From Ignavibacteriales bacterium (lineage in GTDB: Bacteria; Bacteroidota; Ignavibacteria; Ignavibacteriales; Melioribacteraceae): a DNA stretch of 61,933 nt. How positions within the stretch are numbered: the first letter of the stretch is position 1; every line of letters starts with the position of its first letter. This document shows, in pieces, positions 6,544-34,797 of this stretch. The notes below the pieces were generated by a model, which searched no databases, was not told the DNA's origin, and worked only from the letters and a program-made list of their open reading frames with translations. A program made the position numbers and the translations under genes. Location: contig JAFGPR010000277.1 in the NCBI GenBank assembly GCA_016936095.1, forward strand, positions 1 through 61,933. The letters are read 5' to 3'.

Positions 6544-7305
6544 ATGAGTAAAATAATAATTGAAAATTCAATTGTTGAATCAAACGAAAGAATAAATAGC
6601 AATGTCTATTTATTGAAAGTAACATCGCCAGAAATTGCTTCCCAAATTGGAGTGGGACAGTTTTGCAACATTAAAGTTAGCGATACAGATTATCCTTTGC
6701 TTCGTCGTCCTCTAAGTATATGTGATGTCGAGGATGATAAATTATTTTTTCTCTATCAAGTTGTTGGCGTAGGAACTGAAATCCTGTCAAGGAAAATGAA
6801 AGGTGATAGACTTAACATATTAGGTCCTCTTGGTAATGGTTTTAATATTCAGGACGATTTTGAAACTGCGATAATTGTAGCAGGAGGAATTGGCATTGCT
6901 CCATTTCCTTTTCTAATTAAAAAAATTATGAATAAAAATATTATTACTTATGTTGGATTTAAAACAAAGGCTGATATAATTGATTATGGATTAAAAAATT
7001 GTAAATATTCAACAGATGATGGCTCTCTCGATTTCAAAGGAACATGCGTTGACTTATTAAAAAGTGAAGGTAAAACATTAAATTCAAAATGCAAAATATT
7101 TGCCTGTGGCCCAAATTCAATGTTGAGAAACTTAAAAGAGTTTTGCTCTGATAAAAATATTACTTGCGAAGTATCTCTTGAATCCGTAATGGCTTGTGGA
7201 TTTGGTATTTGCCAAGGTTGTGCAGTTGAATCAAAAAATGATGACAATTACAAATTAGTATGTAAAGATGGTCCTGTTTTTAATATTAATGAAATTAAAA
7301 TCTAA
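6544..7305 (+). CDS. pyrK: Dihydroorotate dehydrogenase B electron-transfer subunit
   Basis: RRPLSI FAD-binding motif and C-terminal 2Fe-2S cysteine cluster CGFGICQGCAV...CKDGPVF. Sits immediately upstream of pyrD. Confidence 0.9.
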   Translation: MSKIIIENSIVESNERINSNVYLLKVTSPEIASQIGVGQFCNIKVSDTDYPLLRRPLSICDVEDDKLFFLYQVVGVGTEILSRKMKGDRLNILGPLGNGFNIQDDFETAIIVAGGIGIAPFPFLIKKIMNKNIITYVGFKTKADIIDYGLKNCKYSTDDGSLDFKGTCVDLLKSEGKTLNSKCKIFACGPNSMLRNLKEFCSDKNITCEVSLESVMACGFGICQGCAVESKNDDNYKLVCKDGPVFNINEIKI

Positions 7306-7362
7306 TTTTTAACTTTTTGTCTTTTGGTTATTGTTATACGGCTAAGATTTTTTGGATGATAA

Positions 7363-8277: not shown

Positions 8278-8278
8278 C

Positions 8279-9547: not shown

Positions 9548-9579
9548 TTTTGATTTAGGGAAAAATCTATATATAAAAT

Positions 9580-11064: not shown

Positions 11065-11070
11065 ACTTTT

Positions 11071-18712: not shown

Positions 18713-18741
18713 TTGACAATAAAATCAAGTTTTAGTATTTT
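18713..18741 (+). promoter_or_regulatory. Candidate sigma-70-type promoter for the 18906 operon
   Basis: TTGACA (18713-18718), 17-nt spacer, TATTTT (18736-18741), about 165 nt upstream of the start codon. Chance matches are frequent in AT-rich intergenic DNA. Confidence 0.3.
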
Positions 18742-18905: not shown

Positions 18906-21900
18906 ATGCATCGAAAATTGATCTACTTTATGCTGTTTCTATCCTTAACTGCAATGGTATTTGCAGGTACAAAGGGTAGGATTAAGGGACAGGTCGTCGA
19001 TATTCAAACAGGCGAACCCTTAATCGGTGCTAACGTCGTTGTTGTTGGTACTAACTTTGGTGCCGCAACTGATGCTAGCGGCGAATTTGTTCTGATGAAT
19101 TTGGAAGCTGGAGAATATGATTTGAAAGTTTCCTACATCGGATATCAAAGTATTACTTTGACAGGAGTAAGAGTAAATGCAGACTTGACAACTGAAGTAA
19201 CTGTTGAACTTCCTAAAACAGATTTCACAGTTGAAACAGTTATTGTACAAGCTGAAAGACCTCTTATTATTAAAGACCAAACAAGTTCTGTGCAAGTAAC
19301 TACCAATGACGAAATTCAAAACTTGCCAGTTCGTGGTATGACTAACATTATTTCTTTAAGCGCTGGTGTCGTTGATTACAACGGTATTCACTTAAGAGGT
19401 AGCCGTTCAGATGAAGTTGCTTTCTATCTCGACGGTGTTTCTATTAAAAATCCGATGGGTGGTGGAAGACTTGTTAGTGTACCCAATGATGCAATTGAAG
19501 AGATTCAAGTAGAAACTGGTGGTTATTCAGCAGAATATGGTGATGCGAATGGTGGTATTGTTCGTTCTTCTTTAAGAACTGGTTCAAACGAATACCGTGC
19601 TAGCCTTGAAGTTATGACTGATAATATTGCTTTCAAGAGCAAAGAAGATTTCTATAATCAGGAAGAGGAATTAGGAAGATACTGGTATGGCTATAACGAA
19701 TTAAGTGCTGTTTTAAGTGGTCCTTTTATTCCCGAATCAAAAGTTGCAAAATTCTTCTTAAACTTTAACTACATATATGATAAAGATAGAAGCAAACAAG
19801 GTTACGAAGGATTTGATTATGGATATTTTGGTGATGGACTTTCTAGTGATCCAATAAACAATGATAGTATTAATTTAGTTTATCCAAAAGGTGTTTTAAA
19901 AAATAATGCCGGTCAACAGTATGGTTTAGCTGGTACAATTACTTTAGATCTAAATCCAGTTACTTTCAAACTTGGTGGAACTTACTTTATGAGAGATTAT
20001 GAAGTCGGAGCTAATGGAATTGCCAGTTTAATTCAAAATATGACAGGAAAAGACGAATATAAAGATGGTGCTTTCAGTTTGAAGATGACGCATGTGCTCA
20101 GTCCTTCTATGTTCTATGAAATTATTGGTGGTATAACTGTATGGGATAGAGAACAAGGTACACCAGGAATTTGGGATGATTATTGGAGATATGGAGATAG
20201 CGTTGCTGTTGCTGGAGCTTTAGGAGGACCTTGGGAAAGAAGACCAATAGATTTAGTTACTGGCGCTTTCGGAAGATATGTTAATTCAAATGCCACTGTT
20301 TATGATCTTTTTGGATTTCCATTTAATTATGAAGGAGCAATTCCAGCAACTTATCTAAAACAAAATAGGAATAGCTGGTCAATCGGCGGTAAATTCACTT
20401 ATCTGATTGGCAAAACACATTCAATTATTATCGGAGGTGATTACAGACAATGGACAATTAGGAGCTGGTCAGCTAGAGGACAATTAGACAATGCCTATAG
20501 TATTGCAAAAGCTTTATATAATAGAGGATTACTTTCAGGTTATTCATTTCAAAATACTACTATTTATACGGGAGATGTTTGGGAAGCATTGAAAGTTGCA
20601 GGGTCAGGGTTCGAAGATTCAATAAAAACTGCACTATTAATGCAAGATGGGGTTAGTAATTATGGTTATGATGTACAAGGTAACCTCATTGATGATGAGG
20701 GATTATATGCTCCTAAAAAACCCGTAACAGCAGGTTTCTATCTTGAAGATAAAATCGAATATGAAGATATAATTCTTAAATTGGGTGTACGATACGATTA
20801 CTTTGATATTGATAACTATAAGATGGTTGACCCAACGATGCCAGATTTAAGTATTCTTAATAATGGGGATGTAATTGAATCAGGTTGGGAAAAAACAGCT
20901 GTAAGAAGTTACATTAGTCCAAGAGTTAGTTTATCATTCCCAGTTACTGACAAGACGGTATTCCACGCTGGCTTTGGTAAGTTTATTCAAATGCCTGACT
21001 TAAGCCAAATTTACAATGGTGTTCATAACTGGGCTTATCAAATCGCTGGTGGTTTCTTCTTTTCTGCTCCAGCAGCATTTGATCTTCAACCAGTCAGAAA
21101 AACTCACTATGCTATTGGTTTCCGTCAGGAATTAACAGATTTCTTAGCATTTGACATTACTGGTTATTATGATGATGTTAAAGGTCAGATTTATTTTGAT
21201 CTTAATACAACCGATGTTGCTGGTGGAAGTAAATATCAATCTTATACAACCAAATCTAATGGTGACTTTCAAACATCAAAAGGGGTTGAATTAACTCTTA
21301 CTATGAGAAGATATCAAAGATTTATGGCTAACGCTACCTTTACATTCCAGGATGCAAGGGGAACGGGTTCGTATCCAAATTCGAATTCCGGTGTAGTTGG
21401 TGCTCCTCTTGATGGTGTTACTATATATAGACCTCTTTATGTTTCTCCACTTGAGTTTAATAGAGGATTTACTGGTGTATTAAATCTTGATTATAGATTT
21501 GGTGAAAACGATGGTCCTGTATCAATGTTACATCAATTCGGCGCAAATTTACTATTGAGTATAAACTCTGGACATCCATTTACTAGAGGTACTGGTGGAA
21601 GAAATATGGAAACTGACGGACGTGATAGAAGACCATTAGAACCATTAGGTTCTTCAACTACTCCAAGTCAATTTAGAGTTGATCTTAGAATTGATAAAAC
21701 ATTCAAAATTTATGATAAATTAGCAGCAAATTTCTACATCAAAGTTTTGAATTTATTTAATAATGAAAACGTAAATGATGTATATAGAAGATCTGGTGCT
21801 GCTGATGATGACGGATATATTTCGAATCCTGAATTAGGTGGTACTTTAATTAATACTTATGGACCAGTTTATGAAGATTTGTATAAAGATATGGTGATCA

Positions 21901-21962
21901 ACTATAACGGATTTTATGGTCAAGCTCGCCAGATCATTCTTGGTTTTAGACTTGAGTATTAA
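18906..21962 (+). CDS. TonB-dependent-receptor-type outer-membrane barrel with N-terminal carboxypeptidase-regulatory-like domain
   Basis: - Signal peptide present.
- GRIKGQVVDIQTGEPLIGANVVVVGTNFGAATDASGEFVL...YDLKVSYIGYQS matches the CarboxypepD_reg pattern.
- Plug-like LPVRGMTNIISLSAGVV...HLRGSRSDEVAFYLDGVSI...IEEIQVETGGYSAEYGDANGGIV.
- 1018 aa, with an aromatic C-terminus ...LGFRLEY.
- aggagc sits 6 nt upstream of the ATG. Confidence 0.8.
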   Translation: MHRKLIYFMLFLSLTAMVFAGTKGRIKGQVVDIQTGEPLIGANVVVVGTNFGAATDASGEFVLMNLEAGEYDLKVSYIGYQSITLTGVRVNADLTTEVTVELPKTDFTVETVIVQAERPLIIKDQTSSVQVTTNDEIQNLPVRGMTNIISLSAGVVDYNGIHLRGSRSDEVAFYLDGVSIKNPMGGGRLVSVPNDAIEEIQVETGGYSAEYGDANGGIVRSSLRTGSNEYRASLEVMTDNIAFKSKEDFYNQEEELGRYWYGYNELSAVLSGPFIPESKVAKFFLNFNYIYDKDRSKQGYEGFDYGYFGDGLSSDPINNDSINLVYPKGVLKNNAGQQYGLAGTITLDLNPVTFKLGGTYFMRDYEVGANGIASLIQNMTGKDEYKDGAFSLKMTHVLSPSMFYEIIGGITVWDREQGTPGIWDDYWRYGDSVAVAGALGGPWERRPIDLVTGAFGRYVNSNATVYDLFGFPFNYEGAIPATYLKQNRNSWSIGGKFTYLIGKTHSIIIGGDYRQWTIRSWSARGQLDNAYSIAKALYNRGLLSGYSFQNTTIYTGDVWEALKVAGSGFEDSIKTALLMQDGVSNYGYDVQGNLIDDEGLYAPKKPVTAGFYLEDKIEYEDIILKLGVRYDYFDIDNYKMVDPTMPDLSILNNGDVIESGWEKTAVRSYISPRVSLSFPVTDKTVFHAGFGKFIQMPDLSQIYNGVHNWAYQIAGGFFFSAPAAFDLQPVRKTHYAIGFRQELTDFLAFDITGYYDDVKGQIYFDLNTTDVAGGSKYQSYTTKSNGDFQTSKGVELTLTMRRYQRFMANATFTFQDARGTGSYPNSNSGVVGAPLDGVTIYRPLYVSPLEFNRGFTGVLNLDYRFGENDGPVSMLHQFGANLLLSINSGHPFTRGTGGRNMETDGRDRRPLEPLGSSTTPSQFRVDLRIDKTFKIYDKLAANFYIKVLNLFNNENVNDVYRRSGAADDDGYISNPELGGTLINTYGPVYEDLYKDMVINYNGFYGQARQIILGFRLEY

Positions 21963-22002
21963 TTTAAACTCTTGTGTAAACATAAATAAATGGAGATATA
22001 AT

Positions 22003-25000
22003 ATGAATCAAAAAATATTTAAATTTGCTTCTCTGCTTTTCTTTCTGATGTTGCTTTCATCAGTTTTAATATTTGCAGAAGGCGAAAAGAAAAAACAAGT
22101 GGGCAAAATAGAAGGTTCACCTGCTTATACCCACTTTAACATTAATAATATTTCTACTTGGATTAAAAACGATGGAGAGTCGGATATTAATCCAAATGGA
22201 AACTCTGGATTACAATTTCCAAAGGGTTCTGGGAAAACTGCAGTTTTCCAAACCGGTTTCGTCTATGGTGGAATTGTAAATGGTGAAGTTCGTGTCGGTG
22301 GTTCTACTTACAGACAGGGACAAACACCTGGTAAGATATTACCTGATGGCTCTGCTCAAGATCCAAATGATCCCGATGTAAGAATTTGGAGAGTTAGAAA
22401 AGATTGGAATGAATCTTCTGCAGTTTTTACATCTGAGATAGCTGATGGAGATGGCTCTACTGATGCTGATGTGAAAGCAAAGTATGAATATGATTGGATT
22501 AACTGGCCTTGGCAGAGTGGTGCTCCATATGAGGATGTAAATAATAATGGTCAATATGATTATGAAGTTGATATTCCAGGTGAACCTGGTGCAGCACAAT
22601 CAATCTGGTTTGTTGTTAACGATTTAGATGCAGCTCAATGTCAATTCTTATATGGCTCTAATCCTATTGGACTTGAGATGAGAGCTTCGATTTGGGGTTA
22701 TACATCTTCTCAGGCTCTGCAAAATATGTTTTTCCGTAAGTATACATTAATTAATAGAAGTGCTAACACAGTAGATAGTATGTACGTTTGTTTATGGTCA
22801 GACCCTGATGTTGGAGACGCAGGTGATGACTTTGTAGGTTGCGATGTTGATAAAAGTTTAGCTTATGCTTATAACGGTTTAGCAAGAGATGGTCAGTATG
22901 GAAGTTATCCTCCAGCAGCTGGTTGGGACTTCTTCCAAGGTCCTATAGTACCTGCTCCAGGACAGACTGCTATCGTTAATAACCAATACTTAGCAGATTA
23001 TGAAAATCTTTCAATGAGTACTATGTTCTTCTTTATTAATGGTGACCCCATATATGCAGATCCCGATTTGGGTTATTATACAACTGGTACGTTACAGATG
23101 TGGAATTTGTTTCGAGGAAGAGTAAGTACAACAGGAGAACCCTTTATAGATCCAACAACTGGCATGTCCACTAAATACTGTTTATCAGGTGATCCTGTAA
23201 CAGGTGAAGGTTGGGTTGATGGTATTGCCCACCCACCTGGAGATAGAAGATTAGGTTTGGTTTCTGGTCCTTTCACGATGGCACCTGGCGATACGCAAGA
23301 GATCGTTCTTTCAGAAATATTAGCTGGTGCTACTCAAGGAACTAACAACATTGCTGCTATTCAATTCTTAAGATATTATGACCTTATTGCTCAACAATCT
23401 TATGACAATTTTTTCCTCATTCCAGAGTCTCCAACACCTCCAGTTGTTAATATTTCTACATTAGATCAAGAAATTGTTTTGAATTGGGGAACAAATGCAG
23501 GGAATTGGAGTCAGACTGAATCTAAAGTTAATCAAGGTTACAAATTCCAAGGTTACAATGTTTATCAATTACCTACAAGGTCTGCTACTCAAGAAGAAGC
23601 CATTAGGATTGCAACGTATGATGTAATTGATGATATTACTGTTATTACCCAAAATGAACCGGATATGGAAAGTGGACTTCTGTTAGAGAAAGCAAAACAG
23701 TTTGGAACCAATTCCGGAGTTAAAAGATTTATTACTATAAATAAAGATTACATTAATAATACTGATTTAATTAATGGTACAAAATATTATTTTGCTGTTA
23801 CAGCTTATTCATATAACGATGATCCTTCTGTGGCAGTTAAAACCTTAGAATCAAAATTTAATGTTTACGAAATAATTCCACAGGCTGAAGATGCTGGAAC
23901 AAGATATCAAGCCTCAACAAATGAAGAATTGATTATAACTCATATTGGTACTGCAGATGCTTCAGTTGAAGTTAAAGTTGTTGATCCCAGCAAGTTAACT
24001 GGTCACGATTATGAAGTAAGTTTTTTTGAGCAAAATTATTACTTAGATAAAAATAATGTTTGGAAAAAAACGAATTATCCAGATTCAATTGGTAAAAGTG
24101 GATACAATCCAGAAGATGCTTCTGCATCAACATTATCTGGTCTTGCAGTTTATCAAACATACGGCGATAATGTAGATTGTCGTTTTACTCTTGATTTAGT
24201 CTCACCCGATTATGATTATTGTGATGGAATTCAGGTTACCTTCCCTACAAGTATAACAGTATTAAAAGCTGAGCCAACCGTAGGAAACACATACGGTCAT
24301 ACAATCCCCCCTGTAGTAAGTGGAAATACTGTAACTTGGGGTGGTGATTATCAATCTGGTGATGGTGAATTTTCCGGTGGTGAAGAATTTGTTGTTACAA
24401 TTGCAGAACCCACTTTACCAATATCTATCAACTACGAAATTTTTGATGATGGTTGGGGATTCTTAAGTGGTTATGATACTACTTACGGTATAATTAATGC
24501 AATTGGATCATTGACGATCTCAGAAATGGGTCATACATTCTCAACGCAAACGCATTGGAGATTGAGAGATGTTACTGATAACATTGTTGTATTAGATGAT
24601 CAAAAAGTTTTTTGGGGTGAACATCTTTATTGGAATTATGACGGGCAGTGGAATTCGAAGGAAGTAGGTGAAGATTACACCTCTATAGTTTATGGGCTAA
24701 AAGTAAATGTTACAAGTGGTTCTTTTGAAGCTCCTGTAACTATTGGAAGTGTTAGTTTATTAGAATCTGGCGCAACAAAATCATCAACTGTACCTATTAG
24801 TACTACTGGTGATGGTAGTTACGCTATAACAGATTATTTATATTATGGATGGGCAGCAACTGGTAAATCTATTGACGCATTTGGTAATGGTGTTGACGTA
24901 ATTGATATTTTACAAAAAGATTATGAATTGAGATTCACTGGAGTATATGATACATTAGATAATGCAGGACAACAAATTATTGATGTTCGTAGAGGAACTG

Positions 25001-25767
25001 GTTCTTATGCAACACTATATAATACTCGTTCAATGTCTATGGGTGACCATCCTTTGAATCCGACTCCAGGTTCATCTGATCCATTCTTAATTAGAATACC
25101 TTTTGAGGTATGGAATAAGGATGATAATAGGCAAGTTAATTTAATTATGTTGGATAGAAAGCAGACAGCTACGGCTGATCCTTTTTATCCATTTAATATT
25201 ACCAATAGAATGTATTGTGAAATCCTAAATACTGCTTATGATTCAACCTTAGTCAACAGTGGTGATCCGGGAGAAACTGATACTGATTCATTAACATGGA
25301 ACCTGGTATTTTGGACTACGTATTGGAATTATGGTGATGTAATTACATTACAATATTCTAATCCAATTCAATATGATAAAGATAAATTTACATTTACTAC
25401 TGCTGCACCAACGTTCTCAACAGAAACTCAAGAAGAGGATCTAGATAGAATTAATGTTTATCCTAATCCATATTATGGCGCAAACCCAAGAGAAATTAAC
25501 AAATATCAGAGATTTGTAACGATAAACCATCTTCCAGTGGGAGAACACGCACTAATAAAGATTTACAATCTTGCTGGACAATTGGTTAAAAGGTTATGGA
25601 AACTTACTGGTGACCCACAGGAAATTAAGTGGGACTTAAATAACGAAGACGGTTTACCCGTAGCAAGCGGATTGTTCTTAATTCACGTTGAAATACCAGA
25701 TTTAGGTTTCGAGAAGATACTTAAAGTTGGTATAATTCAGGAACAACAAGTCTTGGATAGATTCTAA
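22003..25767 (+). CDS. Large secreted protein of unknown function with T9SS-type C-terminal sorting domain (paralog A, 1254 aa)
   Basis: - Start moved from the track ORF (21916) to ATG 22003. This start has tggaga upstream and yields the signal peptide MNQKIFKFASLLFFLMLLSSVLIFA.
- FN3-like stretch LDQEIVLNW...YKFQGYNVYQLP.
- The last 109 aa (DLDRINVYPNPYYG...LAGQLVKRLW...ASGLFLIHVEI...KILKVGII) look like a Por/T9SS type-A CTD. Confidence 0.8.
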   Translation: MNQKIFKFASLLFFLMLLSSVLIFAEGEKKKQVGKIEGSPAYTHFNINNISTWIKNDGESDINPNGNSGLQFPKGSGKTAVFQTGFVYGGIVNGEVRVGGSTYRQGQTPGKILPDGSAQDPNDPDVRIWRVRKDWNESSAVFTSEIADGDGSTDADVKAKYEYDWINWPWQSGAPYEDVNNNGQYDYEVDIPGEPGAAQSIWFVVNDLDAAQCQFLYGSNPIGLEMRASIWGYTSSQALQNMFFRKYTLINRSANTVDSMYVCLWSDPDVGDAGDDFVGCDVDKSLAYAYNGLARDGQYGSYPPAAGWDFFQGPIVPAPGQTAIVNNQYLADYENLSMSTMFFFINGDPIYADPDLGYYTTGTLQMWNLFRGRVSTTGEPFIDPTTGMSTKYCLSGDPVTGEGWVDGIAHPPGDRRLGLVSGPFTMAPGDTQEIVLSEILAGATQGTNNIAAIQFLRYYDLIAQQSYDNFFLIPESPTPPVVNISTLDQEIVLNWGTNAGNWSQTESKVNQGYKFQGYNVYQLPTRSATQEEAIRIATYDVIDDITVITQNEPDMESGLLLEKAKQFGTNSGVKRFITINKDYINNTDLINGTKYYFAVTAYSYNDDPSVAVKTLESKFNVYEIIPQAEDAGTRYQASTNEELIITHIGTADASVEVKVVDPSKLTGHDYEVSFFEQNYYLDKNNVWKKTNYPDSIGKSGYNPEDASASTLSGLAVYQTYGDNVDCRFTLDLVSPDYDYCDGIQVTFPTSITVLKAEPTVGNTYGHTIPPVVSGNTVTWGGDYQSGDGEFSGGEEFVVTIAEPTLPISINYEIFDDGWGFLSGYDTTYGIINAIGSLTISEMGHTFSTQTHWRLRDVTDNIVVLDDQKVFWGEHLYWNYDGQWNSKEVGEDYTSIVYGLKVNVTSGSFEAPVTIGSVSLLESGATKSSTVPISTTGDGSYAITDYLYYGWAATGKSIDAFGNGVDVIDILQKDYELRFTGVYDTLDNAGQQIIDVRRGTGSYATLYNTRSMSMGDHPLNPTPGSSDPFLIRIPFEVWNKDDNRQVNLIMLDRKQTATADPFYPFNITNRMYCEILNTAYDSTLVNSGDPGETDTDSLTWNLVFWTTYWNYGDVITLQYSNPIQYDKDKFTFTTAAPTFSTETQEEDLDRINVYPNPYYGANPREINKYQRFVTINHLPVGEHALIKIYNLAGQLVKRLWKLTGDPQEIKWDLNNEDGLPVASGLFLIHVEIPDLGFEKILKVGIIQEQQVLDRF
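22117..24024 (+). repeat. Paralogous coding segment (636 codons), partner of 27068..28978
   Basis: Eyeball alignment of the two translations gives 84 of the first 100 residues identical, dropping to roughly half later. The DNA is also visibly similar, e.g. tggattaaaaa(c/t)gatgg(a/c)ga(g/a)tcggatattaatc. Confidence 0.85.
25438..25764 (+). repeat. Conserved 109-codon C-terminal sorting-domain segment, partner of 29195..29521
   Basis: Compare DLDRINVYPNPYYGANP...KIYNLAGQLVKRLWK...EIKWDLNNEDGLPVASGLFLIHVEIPDLGFEKILKVGIIQEQ with the near-identical tail of paralog B. Confidence 0.85.
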
Positions 25768-25785
25768 TAAATAAGGGAGAATAAA

Positions 25786-26823
25786 ATGAAAAAAATAAAA
25801 GTCATAAGTGCAATTTTAGTGTTTTTCCTTATAGCTGCGGGTAGCAATTTGGTATTCGCAGATGGAGGAGAACGAAATGGCACAGCTGGTTCAGTTCAGT
25901 TACTGATTCCAGTTGGACCACGAGGAATTGGCATGGGTAGTGGTACTCTTGCCAACTCCAAAGGAATCGAATCAATATTCTGGAATCCAGCAAATTTATC
26001 AAGAGGTTCCAAGAGTACAGAAGTTATGTTTGAGCATATGAGTTATATTGCTGATATTGGTATAGAGTATGGAGCTATAAAAACTAGTGTAGAAGGATTT
26101 GGTACAATAGGATTTCATATTAAAACATTAGATATTGGTGAAATACCAGTAACTACATCAGATTTTCCAGATGGAATTGGTCGAACCTATACTCCACAAT
26201 TCTTTACAATTGGCGCAACATATTCAATAATGTTAAGCGATAGAATCTCTGTAGGATTAACCTGTAATTATATTTCAGAAAAAATTGAATTCGTTAGTGC
26301 AACCGGTTTAGGTTTTAATATTGGTCTTACTTATTCTGATTTGGCCAATTTAAAAGGTCTAAATTTTGCTATTGCAATGAAGAATTTCGGTGGAAATATG
26401 CAATATGATGGTTCAGGTTTACTAGTTCTTGCAGATGCTAATGGTTATTTAAGACCAGAACAGTATTACAAAATAGAAGCTGCACCATATGAATTACCAT
26501 CTTCAGTTCAATTTGGTCTAAGCTATCATTATGATATTAATAAACAGAATGCTATTGAAGCAGCAATCCAATTTGAGAATGCTAACTTCTATGGCGATAT
26601 GTATCATGGTGGTTTTGAGTATGCATATGACAATATGGTATTCTTAAGATTTGGATATCAGGTTTCACCAACTTTGATTAAAGCAGAAAATGTATTTGGA
26701 TTAGCTGGCGGTATTGGCTTTAAGGTTAATGTTGGCGGAATGGCACTGGGTGTTGATTATGCATATCGTGATGCAAAGGTATTTGATGGTAATCATATAT
26801 TTAGTTTATATCTAGGATTGTAA
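25786..26823 (+). CDS. PorV/PorQ-family (FadL-like) outer-membrane beta-barrel protein
   Basis: Signal peptide. The N-terminal GTAGSVQLLIPVGPRGIGMGSGTLANSKGIESIFWNPANLS matches the PorV-type signature (FL.I...aR..gMG......wNPA.L). 345 aa with alternating beta-strand pattern. agggaga RBS upstream. Confidence 0.65.
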   Translation: MKKIKVISAILVFFLIAAGSNLVFADGGERNGTAGSVQLLIPVGPRGIGMGSGTLANSKGIESIFWNPANLSRGSKSTEVMFEHMSYIADIGIEYGAIKTSVEGFGTIGFHIKTLDIGEIPVTTSDFPDGIGRTYTPQFFTIGATYSIMLSDRISVGLTCNYISEKIEFVSATGLGFNIGLTYSDLANLKGLNFAIAMKNFGGNMQYDGSGLLVLADANGYLRPEQYYKIEAAPYELPSSVQFGLSYHYDINKQNAIEAAIQFENANFYGDMYHGGFEYAYDNMVFLRFGYQVSPTLIKAENVFGLAGGIGFKVNVGGMALGVDYAYRDAKVFDGNHIFSLYLGL

Positions 26824-26846
26824 TTCTGTTATTATATTATTAAAAA

Positions 26847-26882
26847 ATACCCAAGCCAAATTGGCTTGGGTATTTTTATTTT
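26847..26882 (+). terminator. Rho-independent terminator after the PorV-like gene
   Basis: Perfect 12-nt inverted repeat ATACCCAAGCCA (26847-26858) / TGGCTTGGGTAT (26862-26873), followed by TTTTATTTT. Confidence 0.85.
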
Positions 26883-26962
26883 AAACCCATCAGTCCAATG
26901 ATGTAATTTGCTTTTCAAAATTGTTATATTTGAAAAGTTATTACAAATTTTTAGGTGATAAT

Positions 26963-29524
26963 ATGGACTGGATAAAATTAATCCGATCAATTTTACTTAT
27001 CATTTTAATAATTTCTAATGTTTATTCGCAAGATAAGAAAAATCAAGAAGTCAGTAAATGCTATGGAACTCCTTCTTATACTCATTTTAATATAAATAAT
27101 ATCTCAACCTGGATTAAAAATGATGGCGAATCGGATATTAATCAAAATGGAAACTCCGGCTTAGAATATCCAAAAGGTTCTGGCAAGACAGCAGTTTTCC
27201 AAACAGGATTTTTATATGGTGGAAAAGTAAATGGAGATGTGAGAGTTGGAGGCTCAACATATAGGCAGGGACAAATGCCAGGTCGTATATTATCTGATGG
27301 CACAGCACAAAATCCCGACGACCCAGATGTACGAATATGGAGAGTTAGAAAAGATTGGAATACGCCAAATGCAAGTTTCTTGCAAGAAGTCATTGATGGT
27401 GATGCTGATAGCGAAGCTGAAGCAAAGTCAAATTATGAATATGATTGGAACAATTGGCCCTGGCAATATGGAGCACCTTTCGACGATAAAAACAATAATG
27501 GTACTTATGAACCTACTGTTGATATTCCGGGTTTACCTGGTGCAGACCAGACAATTTGGTTTGTTTGCAATGATTTAAATGTTGAACAATGTCAAAATCT
27601 CTATGGTTCTAATCCTATTGGTTTGGAAATGCAAGCGACTATTTGGGGTTATAATTTTTTCACTCCACTAAAAGATATGTTCTTTAGAAAATATACAATC
27701 ATTAATAAAAGTAATAATACTATTGATAGTATGTATTTAGGAATATGGACAGACCCTGATGTTGGTGATGCCGGAGATGATTTAGTTGGTAGTGATACTA
27801 CACTAATGATGATGTATGCTTATAATGGTAGAGATTGGGATGCACAATATGATTATCAACCTCCCGCAGTAGGATTTCAATTATTACAAGGACCCATTGT
27901 ATATTCTTTAGGAGACACTGCCAGATTTAATAATAAAAGCTTAATTAATTATACTAACTTGCCTTTGAGTGTTATTTATTTCTTTATAGGTGGTGATCCT
28001 TACTATAGTGATCCAAGTTTAGGTCAATATAATTCTGGTACCTTGCAAATGTGGAATTTATTCAGGGGTAGAAGTAGTACTACTGGTAAAGGATTTATTG
28101 ATCCTATTACAGGCAAACCGACAAAATTCTGCTTATCTGGCGATCCGATAAAAAGAACTGGATGGATTGATGGAGTTTATTATCCACTCGGTGATAGAAG
28201 AATTGGACTAGTTGCCAGTCCTTTTAATATGGCACCTGGAGATACGCAAGAATTTATTGTTGCTGAAGTTCTAGGTGGAGCAAAAGATAACCTATCAAAT
28301 ATTGGAGCGATAGGAGATTTGAGAAAGAATGCTAAGATAGCTAATTTATTTTATCAAAATGGTTTTGGAGTTGCATCCAATTTGTTTACACCAAAATTAT
28401 CAAAGACCGAATTAGACCAAGAAATAATTTTAATTTGGGGATTTTCTGAGGCAAATTATTCTCAACTTGAATTTGCTGATTTTATGGGTTATAAATTTCA
28501 AGGTTATAATATTTATCAGTTACCAACACCGACATCTGATATAAAGGATGCTGTTCGGATTGCCACATATGATTTAATTGATGGTGTATTGACTATCAAA
28601 GAGGAAGAGCTGGATCAGTTTGGTAACCCCGAAAATTTAGTCTCAAGGCAATTTGGAACTGATTCTGGAATAAAACGGTACTTTAATGTTAATTATGATT
28701 ATATTAACAAGAAATTTCTTTCCAACGGAGCAGAATATTATTTTACATTAACAGCATATTTATATAATGACAATCCTGAATATTCACCGCGACATATCGA
28801 AACGCCTATGGAAGTTATTACTTGCATACCCAAGGATGTTGATGCAGGTACAAGATATCTTAATAATTTCGGTGATATAATCTCTGTTGAACATGTTGAA
28901 GGAAATGGTAATGGAAATTTAGAGATTGTTGTCATCGATCCAACAAAATTAACCGGCCATAGTTATGAATTAAAATTTAGTGAAGATAATAATGGATTAT
29001 ATTGGCAATTAACCGATTCGACATTATCAAACAAATTACTCTATAAAGGTTACAATTTCAATGAAGGTGATGCCTCTCCGATAGTGGATGGTTTTCAAAT
29101 AAAATTAGATACAATAACAAGTTATTTCAGTGTTGATGATATATATAGATTTATGACTATTGGTAAAGCATATTCTGAAGAGTTGGCTAAAAAAGATTTG
29201 GACAGAATTAATATTTATCCTAATCCTTATTATGGAGCAAATCCGAATGAGACAAAGTATTTTGAAACCTTTGTTACAATCAACCATTTACCAGAATATC
29301 ATAAAGTAAATATTAAAATATATGATCTAGCAGGACAGTTAGTAAAACGTATATGGAAGTATAGTTCAGGAGAACAAGAGATAAAATGGGATTTAACAAA
29401 TGAAGATGGAATACCGGTAGCAAGTGGAATATTCCTAATTCATATTGAAATACCAGATTATGGATATGAGAAGATATTAAAAGTTGGAATTATTCAGGAA
29501 CAAAAGATTCCTTATCGGTATTAA
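26963..29524 (+). CDS. Large secreted protein of unknown function with T9SS-type C-terminal sorting domain (paralog B, 853 aa)
   Basis: Start moved from 26921 to ATG 26963, which has aggtga upstream and gives the signal peptide MDWIKLIRSILLIILIISNVYSQ. The N-terminal ~637 aa and the last 109 aa are homologous to paralog A. Confidence 0.8.
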   Translation: MDWIKLIRSILLIILIISNVYSQDKKNQEVSKCYGTPSYTHFNINNISTWIKNDGESDINQNGNSGLEYPKGSGKTAVFQTGFLYGGKVNGDVRVGGSTYRQGQMPGRILSDGTAQNPDDPDVRIWRVRKDWNTPNASFLQEVIDGDADSEAEAKSNYEYDWNNWPWQYGAPFDDKNNNGTYEPTVDIPGLPGADQTIWFVCNDLNVEQCQNLYGSNPIGLEMQATIWGYNFFTPLKDMFFRKYTIINKSNNTIDSMYLGIWTDPDVGDAGDDLVGSDTTLMMMYAYNGRDWDAQYDYQPPAVGFQLLQGPIVYSLGDTARFNNKSLINYTNLPLSVIYFFIGGDPYYSDPSLGQYNSGTLQMWNLFRGRSSTTGKGFIDPITGKPTKFCLSGDPIKRTGWIDGVYYPLGDRRIGLVASPFNMAPGDTQEFIVAEVLGGAKDNLSNIGAIGDLRKNAKIANLFYQNGFGVASNLFTPKLSKTELDQEIILIWGFSEANYSQLEFADFMGYKFQGYNIYQLPTPTSDIKDAVRIATYDLIDGVLTIKEEELDQFGNPENLVSRQFGTDSGIKRYFNVNYDYINKKFLSNGAEYYFTLTAYLYNDNPEYSPRHIETPMEVITCIPKDVDAGTRYLNNFGDIISVEHVEGNGNGNLEIVVIDPTKLTGHSYELKFSEDNNGLYWQLTDSTLSNKLLYKGYNFNEGDASPIVDGFQIKLDTITSYFSVDDIYRFMTIGKAYSEELAKKDLDRINIYPNPYYGANPNETKYFETFVTINHLPEYHKVNIKIYDLAGQLVKRIWKYSSGEQEIKWDLTNEDGIPVASGIFLIHIEIPDYGYEKILKVGIIQEQKIPYRY
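27068..28978 (+). repeat. Paralogous coding segment (637 codons), partner of 22117..24024
   Basis: See 22117..24024. Confidence 0.85.
29195..29521 (+). repeat. Conserved 109-codon C-terminal sorting-domain segment, partner of 25438..25764
   Basis: See 25438..25764. Confidence 0.85.
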
Positions 29525-29612
29525 GTAAAGTTTTATTTGTCCAATTATTTTTTTTCAGAAAATATTTACTTAAATTATTATTCAAATTATTTTAATTTTT
29601 AAAGGTACTAAA

Positions 29613-30995
29613 ATGCGAAAGTTGAAACTAATATTTTATTCAATTTTTATTTTCTCTGTTATTTATCCGCAAAATTCTCAAATGTTTGAGTTTGATTATG
29701 CTCAGTTTTATTACGATAGTTCATATACCTATTTCGAATTATATTATGCTATTGATCAATCAAAGTTTACAACAAAACAGGTAAATGATACAACATTTAT
29801 CGAAGGATTTTTCAATATTGAAATATTAGGAGCATCTGATACAAACATACTTTATAGTAAAAATTATTTTTTAAATCGCCCCGTTTTTATTAAAGGTAAT
29901 GAAGAAGTTAATGCCGGAAGCTTTATAGGTGTAATAGGACTTGTTTTACAACCTGGTGAATATAAATTTAAATTAAGTACATTGGATAACTTAAAAAGTG
30001 ATAATAAAGAAACAAAGGAACAAGTTGTTAAAATAATTTCCTTTAATACTAATACACCTATTATCAGCGATATACAGGTTGCATCTAATATTATTGCTGG
30101 TAGTTCAAATACAAATTCGATTTTTTATAAAAACACTTATGAGGTTATTCCAAATCCATATTCTTTTTTTAACCAAAATAGTCCAGTATTGTTTTTTTAT
30201 TGTGAATTATATAATTTAAGTTCATCTAATGATCCATCCGAACTACTACTCAAAGAGGATTTGGTTAATAATTTAGGTAAAATTGAATATACAAAGACAA
30301 AAAATGTGTCCCGACAGAATCATTCAATTGTTGAAGCAGGGGCAATTGCTTTGACAAAGTTTGCAACTGGAGCTTATTCATTAGTTGTTTCACTTTTTGA
30401 TTCTAATAACAATTTTATATATTCAGTTTCAAAAAAAATATTTATTATTAATCCTAGTTTCGTTGATACTGTTGAATTGTATAGTGAAGATATGAATGTG
30501 TTCAGTAGTGAATTTGGAATATATACAGCTGAAGAGTGTGATGCACTTTTTGACGCTTCTAAATATATTGCTTCCAATCAGGAAATAGACAGATACGAAG
30601 AATTAGATTCATTAAATGCGAAAAGAAATTATTTATATATGTTTTGGCGTATGAGGGATGAAGATCAATCTACAGCTGAGAACAAAACCAAGGATGAATA
30701 TATCAAAAGAATTGAATATGCAAATTCAAATTGGGGAAAATTCAGTAGAAAAGGTTATAAAACTGACCGTGGTAGAGTTTACTTAACTTATGGTGACCCA
30801 GATATACGTGATAGATACCCAAACGAATCAGATGTGAAACCATATGAAATATGGCGTTATAACTCAATTGAAGGTGGTGTGGTTTTCGTATTTGCTGATT
30901 TAACAGGTTTTGGTGATTATGATTTAATTCATTCAACAAAATTAGGTGAAATGAGGGATGACAACTGGTTATCCCGAATTACAGGTGCTTACTAA
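29613..30995 (+). CDS. GWxTD-domain-like secreted protein of unknown function
   Basis: Signal peptide. The C-terminal GYKTDRGRVYLTYGDPD...YEIWRYN...FVFADLTGFGDYDLIHS matches the GWxTD domain pattern, with W replaced by Y. The N-terminus FEFDYAQFYYDSSYTYFELYYAI is also typical of that family as I recall it. Confidence 0.6.
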   Translation: MRKLKLIFYSIFIFSVIYPQNSQMFEFDYAQFYYDSSYTYFELYYAIDQSKFTTKQVNDTTFIEGFFNIEILGASDTNILYSKNYFLNRPVFIKGNEEVNAGSFIGVIGLVLQPGEYKFKLSTLDNLKSDNKETKEQVVKIISFNTNTPIISDIQVASNIIAGSSNTNSIFYKNTYEVIPNPYSFFNQNSPVLFFYCELYNLSSSNDPSELLLKEDLVNNLGKIEYTKTKNVSRQNHSIVEAGAIALTKFATGAYSLVVSLFDSNNNFIYSVSKKIFIINPSFVDTVELYSEDMNVFSSEFGIYTAEECDALFDASKYIASNQEIDRYEELDSLNAKRNYLYMFWRMRDEDQSTAENKTKDEYIKRIEYANSNWGKFSRKGYKTDRGRVYLTYGDPDIRDRYPNESDVKPYEIWRYNSIEGGVVFVFADLTGFGDYDLIHSTKLGEMRDDNWLSRITGAY

Positions 30996-31001
30996 TTTGA
31001 T

Positions 31002-31877
31002 ATGATTAATAAAAACAAACTAGAATATTTTTTATTTATTATTCTAGTAAAAATAGTAAATCTATTTGGTTTTTCAAGAATTAAATATCTTGCAAAATTT
31101 TTTGGTTTAATATTTTTCTATTTTATCCCAATAAGAAAAAAGATAGTCATTGCAAATCTTAAAATTGCTTTTCCCGAGAAAAATAAGAAAGACATTAAAA
31201 AATTAACATTGCAGAATTATATTAGTTTTTTTGCAACTTTATTCGAGATAATGTCGATTCCAAAGTTGAGTAAAGAGAAAATTTTATCTTTAGTTGAATG
31301 GGGAAATATTGAAATATTTTCAGGAATCTTTAGAAGAAACAAAGGGATTTTCTTATTAACAGCCCATATTGGCAATTGGGAATTATCTGCGATTGCTGCA
31401 AGTTTATTCTTGAAAAAAAAATTTTTTGTTCTTGCTAAACAACAACGCAATCAATATTTTTCTGATTGGCTCAATAAAATGCGTAAAACTTTTGGTAATA
31501 AAGTAATACCCTTAGGTATGTCAGTGCGTGATATCTATATAGCATTGAAAGAAAAAAATATAGTTGGAGTGGTCGGTGACCAAAGAGGACCAAAAGATGG
31601 ATTGAGAGTAAAATTATTTAATAAAGATACCTCTGTTTATGAAGGCACAGCTGAAATTGCTTTGAAATTAAATATTCCAATTGTTGCTGCGATGACAATT
31701 AGAAAACAAGATTATTCTTTCAAAGTAATATTTGAAGAAATTAAGTATAATACCTATTCAAATGATAACAACGAGAAAATTATTAAAATTAATCAAGAAT
31801 ATATGAATATCTTGGAAAGAACCATTAGAGAATATCCATCCCAATGGTTTTGGATGCATAAAATCTGGAAGTATTAA
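31002..31877 (+). CDS. Lipid A late acyltransferase family protein (LpxL/HtrB-type)
   Basis: 291 aa with an N-terminal TM segment, the LTAHIGNWEL (HxGNWE) motif and a WFWMHKIWK C-terminus. Confidence 0.75.
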   Translation: MINKNKLEYFLFIILVKIVNLFGFSRIKYLAKFFGLIFFYFIPIRKKIVIANLKIAFPEKNKKDIKKLTLQNYISFFATLFEIMSIPKLSKEKILSLVEWGNIEIFSGIFRRNKGIFLLTAHIGNWELSAIAASLFLKKKFFVLAKQQRNQYFSDWLNKMRKTFGNKVIPLGMSVRDIYIALKEKNIVGVVGDQRGPKDGLRVKLFNKDTSVYEGTAEIALKLNIPIVAAMTIRKQDYSFKVIFEEIKYNTYSNDNNEKIIKINQEYMNILERTIREYPSQWFWMHKIWKY

Positions 31878-31879
31878 TA

Positions 31880-32899
31880 ATGACCCAAAAGATTTTAATA
31901 ATACAAACCGCTTTTCTTGGAGATGCTATTTTAACTCTTCCGCTGGTTCAAAAAGTTTATGAATTGAATGGCAATACTTCAATAGATATATTAACAATTG
32001 AACAGAATCGCTTTATTTTTGAGTCATCGCCCTATGTTAGTAATGTGATAATTCTTGATAAAAAGAAAAAACATAGGAATATTTTTAAAACTCTAAGGTT
32101 TGCTAAAAAATTACGAAAAAACAAATATACCAAAATTATTTCCCCACATCGTTCCTTCCGAACTTCTATAATTGTTTGGGCACTAAAAGTTAAAGAATCT
32201 ATTGGATTCTATACTTCCGCTTTCAATTTTGTATATAAGACATTGATTAAATATCGAATTGATTATCATGAAGTTCAAAGAAATCTTTCGCTATTAAACA
32301 ATGCGAGTTTAGTTCAAAATTGGAAAATTCTACCAAAAATTATTGTAAGCAAAGAAGTTATTGATAAAGTTAAGCAATTCATTAAATACCTATCTGAGAA
32401 GAAATATATTGCTATTGCTCCATCTTCAGTTTGGTATACAAAGACCTATCCAAAGGAATATTACATTAGAATAATTAATGATCTTATTGAAAAGGGTTTT
32501 TTTATTTTTCTGATTGGTGGTACGGATGATAAGAATTATTGTGAAGGGATAAAAAATCTTTTTCCGGATAACATAATATCAACTGCAGGTTCTTTTAATG
32601 TTATTGAAACAATTGAACTTTTAAAATATTGCCAACTCTTAATCTGTAATGATAGTGCACCTACACATATGGGAATGTGTGCTGATATACCTGTGTTAAC
32701 AATTTACTGCTCAACTGTTCCTTCTTTTGGATTTTATCCTTATAATGGGAAAAGTAAATATTTAAGTTACGATGAACTGATATGTAAACCATGTGGAATT
32801 CATGGATATAAAAAGTGCCCTATTAAAACTTATGACTGTGCTTATCTGCTAACTCCCGAAAGAATTCTTCATTCTGTATATCAAATGTTATCATTATGA
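31880..32899 (+). CDS. Glycosyltransferase family 9 (LPS heptosyltransferase-like)
   Basis: ILIIQTAFLGDAILTLP N-terminus and CNDSAPTHMG motif. Confidence 0.8.
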   Translation: MTQKILIIQTAFLGDAILTLPLVQKVYELNGNTSIDILTIEQNRFIFESSPYVSNVIILDKKKKHRNIFKTLRFAKKLRKNKYTKIISPHRSFRTSIIVWALKVKESIGFYTSAFNFVYKTLIKYRIDYHEVQRNLSLLNNASLVQNWKILPKIIVSKEVIDKVKQFIKYLSEKKYIAIAPSSVWYTKTYPKEYYIRIINDLIEKGFFIFLIGGTDDKNYCEGIKNLFPDNIISTAGSFNVIETIELLKYCQLLICNDSAPTHMGMCADIPVLTIYCSTVPSFGFYPYNGKSKYLSYDELICKPCGIHGYKKCPIKTYDCAYLLTPERILHSVYQMLSL

Positions 32900-32950
32900 A
32901 AGAAAATTTACTTAAATATTTATATATTTGTACATTAAAATATAAACACT

Positions 32951-33793
32951 ATGAATTTTAAAAATATTTCAAAATACTTTAGGTCTAATATTCAAATATT
33001 ATTTGATTTTCCCGACGGTGGAATGAAAATAATTAATTTAGGAATTGTTAAAATAATATTATTCTTCTTTATTGTATTTTTAATTTCACTGTTTTTATCA
33101 TTTATATTGATTTTGTATACACCGATGAATGAACTTGTAATTAATGTCGGTAATAGTCAACTTAGAAAACAGGTGGAAAAGATTGAAAATCTTGAAGAAA
33201 GAATAAATATTCTAATGACAGAGTTAAAATCAATTAGTAGCAATAATAAAAACTTAAAGTACACTTATGTAATCTCAAAGAGTGACACAACAATTGATTC
33301 AATCGAAGTAATTTATGATTCATTAAAAAGTGAACCCGTCAATCCTTTTGAAGGAAATATTTTTTCAATTTATAACAAATGGATTGAATCAAAAAATTCC
33401 AATCTTGATTCGATAAAAATCTTTTTTATACGTCCTTGCGAAGGAATTGTTATACGTGAATTTAGTTCACAGATTGGACATATGGGGATTGATTTCGGTT
33501 GTAAACAAAATACACCCATCCTAGCTTCTGCTGGTGGTCTAATCATTTTTTCTGATTATACTGTAAAAGATGGTAATGTTATTATGATAGAACATGATAA
33601 TGATTATTTAACAGTATATAAGCATCTTTCTACTCTAACTAAAAAATCAAGAGAATATGTTCACCAGAGTGAAGTACTCGGTTTTAGTGGTAATACAGGT
33701 ACTAATACAACTGGACCACATCTTCATTTTGAAATCTGGGAAAAAGGTAAACCGATAAATCCAAGAAATATATTAATAAATTTAGGGGAATAA
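32951..33793 (+). CDS. Membrane-anchored M23 family metallopeptidase
   Basis: One TM segment, a coiled-coil region, then HMGIDFG...GNTGTNTTGPHLHFEI (HxxxD and HxH motifs). Confidence 0.88.
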   Translation: MNFKNISKYFRSNIQILFDFPDGGMKIINLGIVKIILFFFIVFLISLFLSFILILYTPMNELVINVGNSQLRKQVEKIENLEERINILMTELKSISSNNKNLKYTYVISKSDTTIDSIEVIYDSLKSEPVNPFEGNIFSIYNKWIESKNSNLDSIKIFFIRPCEGIVIREFSSQIGHMGIDFGCKQNTPILASAGGLIIFSDYTVKDGNVIMIEHDNDYLTVYKHLSTLTKKSREYVHQSEVLGFSGNTGTNTTGPHLHFEIWEKGKPINPRNILINLGE

Positions 33794-33796
33794 AAA

Positions 33797-34204
33797 ATGT
33801 TAGGCAAAAAAGAAGCTGAATATTCAAAGGAAATTGGTGTAATTAGCCAAGGTATGAAAGTTGAAGGAAATATCATCTCAAAAGGTAATCTTCGAGTGGA
33901 TGGTAAAATAATTGGAAATGTGACTTGCGAAGGAAGTCTTGTGGTTGGAGAAACATCCGAATTGAAAGGAGAACTGAAAGTCAACAATATTATTTTAAAC
34001 GGTCGGTTTGAAGGAACAATCGTAGCAAGCGACAAAATTGTATTAGGGACTAAAGCTGTTGTTAAAGGTGATTTAACAAGTAAATCTCTTGTAATGGAGG
34101 AAGGAACTCGGTTTGATGGAAGAAGTAGGATGACTGAAGGAGTAGCAGACCCAACAAGATTTGCTAAATTAGAAGATAAGGAGAAAAAACCTGAAATTAA
34201 ATGA
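33797..34204 (+). CDS. Bactofilin (polymer-forming cytoskeletal protein)
   Basis: 135 aa with a beta-helical repeat pattern: VEGNIISKGNLRVDGKIIGNV...LVVGETSELKGEL...ILNGRFEGTI...KGDL. The gene ends with three consecutive in-frame stops TGA TAG TAA (34202-34210). Confidence 0.88.
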   Translation: MLGKKEAEYSKEIGVISQGMKVEGNIISKGNLRVDGKIIGNVTCEGSLVVGETSELKGELKVNNIILNGRFEGTIVASDKIVLGTKAVVKGDLTSKSLVMEEGTRFDGRSRMTEGVADPTRFAKLEDKEKKPEIK

Positions 34205-34424
34205 TAGTAACTTAATTAAAAATATTGCACCATATCTCAACATTGGAACACAATTAGCAATTACAATTGCTTTATCATTTTTTTTAGGTAAATGGCTTGA
34301 TGATATATTAAACATTTTTCCCGTTCTCACAATCTTTTTATCTCTATTAGGAATTATAACAGGTTTATATAATTTTATTAAAACAATTATTGAAATTGAA
34401 AAAAGAAAATCTAAGGAAAATTGA
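34191..34424 (+). CDS. AtpZ/AtpI-family small membrane protein (ATPase_gene1-like); start codon uncertain
   Basis: - Not in the ORF track.
- Own translation of the frame open from 34173 to TGA 34422-34424 gives ...NDSNLIKNIAPYLNIGTQLAITIALSFFLGKWLDDILNIFPVLTIFLSLLGIITGLYNFIKTIIEIEKRKSKEN.
- It has two TM helices, and the G.QLA......G.WLD motif resembles AtpZ-like proteins that precede atp operons.
- There is no in-frame ATG/GTG/TTG. The only candidates are CTG 34191 or ATT 34215. Confidence 0.55.
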   Translation: MKLNDSNLIKNIAPYLNIGTQLAITIALSFFLGKWLDDILNIFPVLTIFLSLLGIITGLYNFIKTIIEIEKRKSKEN

Positions 34425-34797
34425 GAAATTTTATTTTTATTTTTTTATTAGTGCAATAATTGTTTTTCTTTTTTTATTTGTAAATGATTTAATTGCATTA
34501 AAAGTTTTTGTATTTATTGTAATTTCTGTTTTTTCTAATATCTTTAACTATTCAGCTTTTATTTTTATCTTTAATTATTCTAAATCTAAGTCGAATAACA
34601 AATTTTTTATTTTTAATCTTGGTGGTATGATATTACGGATTGGATTGTTGATAATTGTTTATGTCTTGACAATTATTTATCTAAGACCTGATCTTTTAGC
34701 TTTTACTGTTATTTTTATAGCTTTATATTTTTGTACATTATCAATTGAAATAATAAAAATTTTTGAATGTCAGGAAGCCAAAAAAATATTGAGATGA
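34390..34797 (+). CDS. Small polytopic membrane protein, possibly ATP synthase protein I (AtpI-like)
   Basis: 135 aa with about 4 TM segments, directly upstream of atpB. TTG start that overlaps the preceding small ORF. The assignment rests on position and size only. Confidence 0.4.
   Translation: MKLKKENLRKIEKFYFYFFISAIIVFLFLFVNDLIALKVFVFIVISVFSNIFNYSAFIFIFNYSKSKSNNKFFIFNLGGMILRIGLLIIVYVLTIIYLRPDLLAFTVIFIALYFCTLSIEIIKIFECQEAKKILR

Follow-up and report, generated by a model that had tools for sequence, protein, structure and literature searches.

Three adjacent genes in a 61,933-nucleotide stretch of an Ignavibacteriales genome (contig JAFGPR010000277.1, family Melioribacteraceae; this whole stretch is hereafter called the window) encode a TonB-dependent transporter (TBDT), a very large secreted protein ending in a C-terminal domain (CTD) of the kind found on type IX secretion system (T9SS) cargo, and an outer membrane barrel of the PorV/PorQ family. 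We refer to the large secreted protein as the giant and to the three genes together as the trio. Judged from the sequence, the TBDT, the giant and the PorV-like barrel are encoded by a three-gene operon that is closed by an intrinsic terminator. Both cognate PorV-like anchors and complexes of a TBDT with a surface partner are already known; what appears to be new is the presence of both in one conserved, co-evolving operon, for which Pfam and NCBIfam have no entry. A literature search on T9SS and PorV in Ignavibacteria and on PorV-like paralogs returned no description of a TBDT-giant-PorV system, in agreement with a preliminary description of this stretch, whose author knew of no system of such composition.

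The preliminary description had listed five consecutive plus-strand genes, and the open reading frame (ORF) listing and translations reproduce all five, with their coordinates and gaps of 40, 18 and 88 nt exact (Table 1). The length of the giant is counted from the methionine of its signal peptide, the mechanical ORF start being at 21916. The grouping of all five into a single unit did not hold: the unit consists of the first three genes, the gene for a GWxTD protein tracks the LpxL and GT9 genes that follow it, and the 853-aa gene is a satellite copy of the giant. The strong terminator claimed 3' of the PorV-like gene is confirmed by its stem energy, by its U-run and by a stem z-score of -5.6, which was equaled by none of 200 shuffled sequences; likewise, of 56 related loci, 38 have a hairpin followed by a T-run 3' of their PorV-like gene. 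At the other end of the trio, a candidate sigma-70-like promoter is the best match within the 234 nt that separate the thioredoxin and TBDT genes; it is a consensus match only, in a region not enriched in promoter-like sites. No riboswitch or tRNA was found near the block.

The same block had been described as accessory-looking, a view that its conservation contradicts. The trio is located at a matching housekeeping locus in three cultured Ignavibacteria, Melioribacter roseus P3M-2, Stygiobacter electus and Ignavibacterium album JCM 16511, the trio being MROS_0284-0286 in the first and the cassette more divergent in the last of these. In all three species the gene order is dUTPase, dnaE, thioredoxin, the trio, GWxTD, LpxL and GT9, continuing with an M23 peptidase, bactofilin and ATP synthase. 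This common order indicates that the cassette was present at the locus before those lineages split and, on gene order, the trio at the housekeeping locus is core and ancestral. A horizontally acquired accessory island is ruled out for this locus by the conservation in the three cultured species, despite a G+C content of 0.33-0.37 over 19-29 kb (trio plus satellite) versus approximately 0.27-0.31 in the flanks. The raised G+C content probably results from amino acid composition, that is from Gly- and Asp-rich secreted proteins, and not from recent acquisition.

A protein search with the N-terminal region of the giant returned more than 2,100 matches, of which those from named organisms were almost all from Ignavibacteria; the matching proteins, of about 1,100 aa, are 47-63% identical and carry either no name or the label "T9SS type A sorting domain-containing protein". 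One genome per species was then scanned (588 relatives), and the best 80 loci were taken and given L-numbers. By tblastn, 46 loci with enough flanking sequence contain a long giant (at least 950 aa) with a TBDT gene directly upstream and a PorV-like gene directly downstream; a few further trios, broken by frameshifts, lie outside this count. Homologues of the giant thus display the conserved synteny with TBDT and PorV-like genes on which the preliminary description had staked its proposal. About 25 other copies of the giant are solitary or in tandem arrays with neither barrel alongside. Trio-linked copies all carry a hypervariable insert, and intact copies lacking the insert are never linked to a trio, the three short ORFs that do lie beside a barrel being fragments of split long copies (L029, L081). 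A typical genome contains one trio and one to three satellites elsewhere, and both the window and L085 have a satellite between the barrel gene and the GWxTD gene. By this pattern the 853-aa gene is a satellite, with neither the insert nor a barrel of its own.

Sequence divergence at the housekeeping locus sets the trio apart from its flanks. Compared with the proteins of I. album and M. roseus, respectively, those of the window are 62.7 and 62.9% identical for DnaE, 44.0 and 44.0% for GWxTD, 40.6 and 40.9% for LpxL, and 48 and 47% for GT9. For the trio, the corresponding values are 29 and 50% (TBDT), 28 and 53% (giant), and 41 and 52% (PorV-like barrel). Since all three trio genes are lower against I. 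album while the flanks are equidistant, the TBDT, the giant and the barrel evolve as one unit.

The first protein of the trio contains a signal peptide, a CarboxypepD_reg extension (aa 26-114; PF13715, 75.2 bits, cutoff 32.2), a plug (aa 123-217; PF07715, 43.2 bits, cutoff 23.9) and a large barrel (OMP_b-brl_4, PF25183; 49.2 bits, cutoff 30). Between the N-terminal extension and the plug lies a segment resembling a TonB box at the motif level (ETVIVQA, approximately aa 110-117); the position of this segment, with its alternating hydrophobic residues, and the plug motifs are conserved across 52 TBDT orthologues. The SusC/RagA model TIGR04056, with a cutoff of 368.25, gives the protein 61.8 bits and matches its N-terminal 125 aa only, so that by domain content the TBDT is Oar-type and not SusC-type. 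The preliminary description had noted that a SusD-like lipoprotein gene is missing, and Pfam and NCBIfam profile searches of the block and its neighbors indeed matched no SusD-family gene; the gene after the TBDT, that of the giant, encodes a type I signal peptide without a lipobox. Because the TBDT is of the Oar type, the lack of SusD is no anomaly. A SusC/SusD-type locus is ruled out by the failure on the SusC model together with the absence of a SusD match. SusCD families have been reported in Fibrobacterota-Chlorobiota-Bacteroidota (FCB) phyla other than Chlorobiota, with I. album among the sampled species (PMC12611786), and the trio is therefore an additional architecture and not a replacement. 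Like the SusC-SusD and BtuB-BtuG systems, the trio encodes a TBDT together with a large surface partner and occurs as paralogous cassettes, some of them under Reg_prop/Y_Y_Y control; unlike in those systems, the partner is neither a lipoprotein nor SusD-like, and would be delivered by the T9SS and tethered through a PorV-like barrel. In I. album, a gene for a 595-aa T9SS type A cargo protein is located directly upstream of the TBDT gene of the housekeeping locus (L087 8074-9861; L082 509-2305); this cargo scores 49.9 bits on TIGR04183, and its passenger region has no family match.

The giant consists, in order, of a signal peptide, an N-terminal domain (N-domain), a region of FN3-like and beta-sandwich domains, the hypervariable insert and the T9SS-type CTD. 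The 853-aa and 1254-aa proteins are paralogs, as had been proposed: 712 aa of them align at 55% identity, and their final 128 aa at 64%. The preliminary description could name no enzymatic or ligand-binding domain in any of the five genes, and no profile search places the giant in a characterized family: apart from weak matches to T9SS CTD models, the two giants of the window match nothing in Pfam or NCBIfam, 33 members of the family have no Pfam match outside the CTD, and a PDB sequence search with the giant and its family profile gave nothing significant. Despite this lack of relatives, the fold is modeled with confidence. AlphaFold2, given 33 homologues, models the 853-aa copy with a pLDDT of 84.9, and the N-domain alone (aa 36-470 of that copy) with a pLDDT of 94.8 and a pTM of 0.94. 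The modeled N-domain is large and mostly beta, with a long helix at its end, and its closest structure in the PDB by Foldseek is no close relative (best TMq 0.42, root-mean-square deviation approximately 9 Å). About 60 positions of the N-domain are invariant in the homologue alignment and 20 of these are Asp; they include the motif W-x-D-x-D-x-G-x3-D-D-x2-G-x-D, which we take to resemble calcium-binding motifs. An exhaustive phmmer search with the N-domain found 5,913 clusters at 50% identity with E ≤1e-3, 1,492 of them at E ≤1e-30. The N-domain is thus a very large and confidently modeled family that Pfam and NCBIfam do not cover and that has no close relative in the PDB. In some relatives, proteins of 870-1,790 aa, the N-domain is internal or C-terminal.

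Conservation along the giant is markedly uneven. Among 29 long copies, mean pairwise identity is 60% in the N-domain, 45% in the middle region, 29% in the insert and 71% in the CTD, which is therefore the best-conserved part of the protein. The insert is placed ahead of the CTD, measures 250-400 aa across the family and falls into at least three sequence types.

PorZ and PorU are T9SS substrates that retain their CTDs and are seated on PorQ and PorV, respectively. Between the C-terminus of the NCBIfam PorZ model and the generic type A model, the CTDs of the giant family score higher on the former (for example, 49.6 versus 23.0 bits). Foldseek with the whole-protein model likewise ranks PorZ (5m11) and PorU (6za2) first. 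Homologue CTDs reach 27.4 and 23.0 bits on the type A model, which passes its cutoff of 23, and orthologues are named "T9SS type A sorting domain-containing protein" by NCBI; on PF18962, a window CTD scores 14.3 bits against a cutoff of 27, and the type B model TIGR04131, whose cutoff is 35, gives the CTD 13 bits. Apart from Chlorobiota, the FCB phyla that were sampled are reported to have SprA, a component of the secretion system, and I. album was among the species analyzed (PMC12611786).

The third protein of the trio has a signal peptide and a 14-strand-type barrel, and its description as PorV-like is upheld at the family level (NF033709, PorV/PorQ family; 163.5 bits, cutoff 90). It misses the equivalog models of PorV (NF033710; 62.7 bits, cutoff 250), PorQ (NF033711; 66.1 bits, cutoff 220) and PorV2 (NF052325; 52.6 bits, cutoff 325). 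Run against the PDB, a profile of the barrel family, whose mean column identity is 65%, finds F. johnsoniae PorV (6h3i; E 1.2e-20) and nothing else significant. That this barrel is a PorV paralog "private" to the giant, as had been suggested, is plausible. Cognate PorV-like barrels keep and anchor CTD proteins that are not cleaved, and for type B cargo the proposed anchors are PorP/SprF barrels whose genes lie next to that of the cargo (PMC10202324). The trio is like the SprB-SprF system of Flavobacterium johnsoniae, a type B cargo with a PorP/SprF barrel, in that the genes for cargo and dedicated barrel are clustered and the barrel is the proposed anchor (PMC10202324). It differs in that its CTD is type A or PorZ-like, its barrel is of the PorV/PorQ family, and type B systems include no TBDT. 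The CTD exceeds every other part of the giant in conservation, and a co-evolving barrel is encoded 18 nt downstream; both would fit a permanent and specific docking of the one on the other.

Outside the housekeeping locus, the surroundings of the trio vary. About ten loci have genes for a Reg_prop/Y_Y_Y histidine kinase and a LytTR or LuxR response regulator directly upstream of a paralogous trio (Table 1), a layout that recalls the hybrid sensors of Bacteroides polysaccharide utilization loci. In four loci, genes for an AhpC-like protein or redoxin and a DUF6029 protein are located ahead of the trio (L086 4327-15519; L083 679-11044; L051; L072). A gene for PagL, a lipid A deacylase, follows the trio in L086, and two phage-type integrase genes follow it in L083. 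Duplicated, relocating and sometimes regulated, the module therefore resembles a cassette for nutrient acquisition more than it does core machinery.

The fifth gene of the original block is GWxTD-like, as had been stated (TIGR04514, 94.1 bits, cutoff 28; PF20094, 51.2 bits, cutoff 26.9), and its loyalties lie downstream. It is separated from the LpxL gene by 2-10 nt in the window, M. roseus, S. electus and L085, and it stays beside LpxL where extra DNA parts it from the trio (L058, L059). Membership of GWxTD in the module is ruled out by this coupling, by its absence from trios in other contexts and by its flank-like divergence; from gene order, GWxTD is the head of an LpxL/GT9 lipid A/core unit. 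It is found almost always directly upstream of the genes for the LpxL-type lipid A acyltransferase and the GT9 heptosyltransferase (window 29613-32899; L001 14468-17732; L084 14483-17735; L087 17585-20971), which suggests that this uncharacterized family is tied to lipopolysaccharide (LPS) or outer membrane biogenesis. A literature search for GWxTD found no mention of the term.

The rest of the window is rich in envelope genes, which encode alanine racemase, a Mur ligase, a Polysacc_synt-family protein (probable flippase), a PMT_2/TPR glycosyltransferase, LpxL, the GT9 heptosyltransferase, an M23 peptidase, bactofilin, an RlpA-like DPBB+SPOR protein and LptF/LptG. Other housekeeping genes of the window are those for dUTPase, DnaE, acyl-CoA dehydrogenase, thioredoxin and ATP synthase. 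Four ORFs of 135-307 aa have no Pfam match at E ≤1e-5 (3082-4005, 34390-34797, 43290-44048 and 45807-46499); the second of these lies just upstream of the gene for ATP synthase subunit a.

Table 1. Coordinates of the trio, of the features within and around it, and of related loci with kinase-linked trios.
Feature	Position	Strand	Remarks
Candidate sigma-70-like promoter	18713..18741	+	TTGACA, 17-nt spacer, TATTTT; 10/12 positions
TBDT (gene 1)	18906-21962	+	1018 aa; 40 nt to next gene
Primary giant (gene 2)	22003-25767	+	1254 aa; 18 nt to next gene
Primary giant, N-domain	22117-23421	+	aa 39-473
Primary giant, hypervariable insert	24196-25380	+	~aa 732-1126; ~395 aa
Primary giant, T9SS-type CTD	25507-25740	+	~aa 1169-1246
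PorV/PorQ-family barrel (gene 3)	25786-26823	+	345 aa; 139 nt to next gene, terminator inside
Intrinsic terminator after gene 3	26843..26883	+	16-bp stem, -23.3 kcal/mol, then U-run
Satellite giant paralog (gene 4)	26963-29524	+	853 aa; 88 nt to next gene
Satellite, N-domain	27068-28372	+	followed by FN3-like/beta-sandwich region, no insert
Satellite, CTD	29264-29497	+
GWxTD protein (gene 5)	29613-30995	+	460 aa; 6 nt to LpxL
LpxL	31002-31877		downstream of GWxTD gene
GT9 heptosyltransferase	31880-32899		downstream of LpxL
Envelope-gene stretches of the window	1962-12966, 31002-34204, 45045-45791, 51832-54313
Loci with kinase-linked trios	L042 1961-5925; L029 2564-6476; L022, L031, L032, L041, L047, L068

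In the best reading of the trio, to which we give somewhat under an even chance, the giant would be exported by the T9SS, stay docked on a barrel of its own and cooperate with the TBDT in uptake. The signal peptide suggests that the giant would cross the inner membrane by the Sec pathway, and the fold of the CTD and the annotation of orthologues suggest that it would cross the outer membrane by the type IX system. Its PorZ-like CTD could then remain uncleaved and dock on the extracellular loops of the barrel, by analogy with PorZ on PorQ, PorU on PorV and type B cargo with PorP/SprF. Such docking would keep the giant at the surface next to the Oar-type TBDT. The 435-aa, Asp-rich beta-sandwich N-domain would be the constant part of the giant, the insert would confer ligand specificity, and a captured substrate, most plausibly a glycan or other polymer fragment, would be handed to the TBDT for TonB-energized import. 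The 853-aa satellite, which has no insert, would probably share the same anchor barrel. [quoted passage not shown] The set of genes, the limit of the operon, the conserved synteny and co-divergence of the trio, the confidence of the fold and the lack of known relatives are directly supported; we infer the retention of the CTD, the physical association of the giant with the TBDT, and import. More tentatively, the trio may specify a hitherto undescribed Ignavibacterial two-barrel uptake complex with a T9SS-delivered, CTD-tethered partner and a swappable insert that sets the substrate, encoded by a class-ancestral and repeatedly duplicated cassette.

A number of observations weigh against the uptake reading. 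First, the CTDs of the window reach only 15.0 and 19.8 bits on the type A model TIGR04183, below its cutoff of 23. Second, profile searches identified no ligand-binding or catalytic domain in the giant, and the insert has no relative in the PDB, where two insert profiles gave nothing significant. The weak Foldseek match of the N-domain is to a beta-sandwich region found at the N-terminus of dextran dextrinase and of GH116 and GH94 enzymes, and we draw no functional conclusion from it. Third, the primary copy lies in a constitutive locus rich in envelope-biogenesis genes, beside lipid A genes (LpxL here, PagL in L086), a setting that fits a role in envelope assembly equally well. Finally, a TBDT of the Oar class has been linked to protein export (PMC6434023).

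It is rather unlikely, in our judgment, that the giant is chiefly a structural coat, a surface-layer (S-layer)-like layer or an adhesin, exported by the T9SS, anchored by the barrel and merely co-transcribed with a TBDT to which it has no mechanistic link. The build of the giant as a chain of beta-sandwich and FN3-like domains agrees with such a role, as do the Foldseek matches of its model to FN3 arrays and to an archaeal S-layer protein, the absence of a catalytic or binding signature from profile searches, the constitutive housekeeping setting of the primary copy, and the many satellites that stand alone or in tandem without a TBDT. A coat or adhesin would leave unexplained, however, that linkage to a TBDT is near-universal for the copies bearing an insert (the 46 trio loci) and that some trios are placed under a sensor kinase; the divergence of the TBDT in step with the giant and the barrel, unlike the flanks, is also hard to explain without functional coupling.

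It is unlikely, too, that the giant and the barrel are attachment or envelope machinery for LPS or cargo, resembling PorZ-PorQ or PorU-PorV, with the TBDT as an accessory. The CTD of the giant best fits the retained CTD of PorZ, and the I. album barrel scores 91.8 bits on the PorQ model versus 69.9 on the PorV model. A cargo-like gene followed by a barrel gene mirrors the order of porU and porV. The ancestral copy is next to LpxL and GT9 and another trio is followed by PagL, and adjacency to lipid A genes keeps this explanation alive. Compared with PorZ-PorQ and PorU-PorV of the Porphyromonas gingivalis T9SS attachment complex, the trio likewise pairs a CTD protein with a barrel of the PorV family, the CTD being most PorZ-like and its retention presumed. 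However, the passenger here has neither a C25 peptidase nor PorZ-like beta-propellers in its models, the PorQ and PorV equivalog cutoffs are all missed, and the pair shares its operon with a TBDT. A divergent PorU, and with it a sortase, is ruled out for the giant by the absence of any C25/PorU match and of a single invariant Cys or His outside the CTD in 33 homologues. Moreover, a cassette that is duplicated and diversified, under two-component control in some loci, neighbored by integrases in another and endowed with a hypervariable insert is untypical of core machinery.

Alternatively, the TBDT could act outward, releasing or maturing the giant or another protein, which we regard as quite improbable. 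Its CarboxypepD_reg extension, plug with TonB box and 22-strand-type barrel, together with the PF25183 match, are those of Oar from Myxococcus xanthus (PMC6434023). The likeness is one of architecture, and Oar, unlike the TBDT of the trio, has no linked T9SS cargo or PorV-like barrel. As 28% of surveyed TBDTs share the Oar architecture (PMC6434023), it says little about the direction of transport, and a second export route would be redundant for a giant with a T9SS-type CTD and its own PorV-family barrel.

Finally, although BamG is a FadL/PorV-like 14-strand pillar barrel that anchors the surface protein BamH by a larger barrel (PMC12611786, PMC12578637) and the two genes sit side by side in many FCB species, I. 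album being one of them (PMC12611786, Supplementary Table 1), identity of the barrel and the giant with an Ignavibacterial BamG and BamH of a Bacteroidota-type BAM is scarcely credible and effectively refuted, since BamG and BamH of I. album are IALB_1455 and IALB_1454 while its trio is at a separate locus (~0.85 Mb of 3.66 Mb, roughly gene 750, the two genes compared here being at 851.7-856.4 kb of CP003418), the barrel groups with PorV (its profile reaches PorV at 1e-20 and, with E up to 10, no chain of the BAM), the giant is CTD-tethered and lacks the lipoprotein cysteine of BamH, and the large barrel is a TBDT and not BamA.

If the uptake reading is true, FCB bacteria would have a further way of setting a substrate-capturing protein over a TBDT, beyond SusD-type and other surface lipoproteins, and type IX secretion would be linked directly to nutrient import. 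The idea that PorV-type barrels serve as permanent anchors would also be widened beyond PorU/PorV, PorZ/PorQ and SprB/SprF, which are all from Bacteroidota, to a cassette whose cultured hosts are M. roseus, I. album and S. electus.

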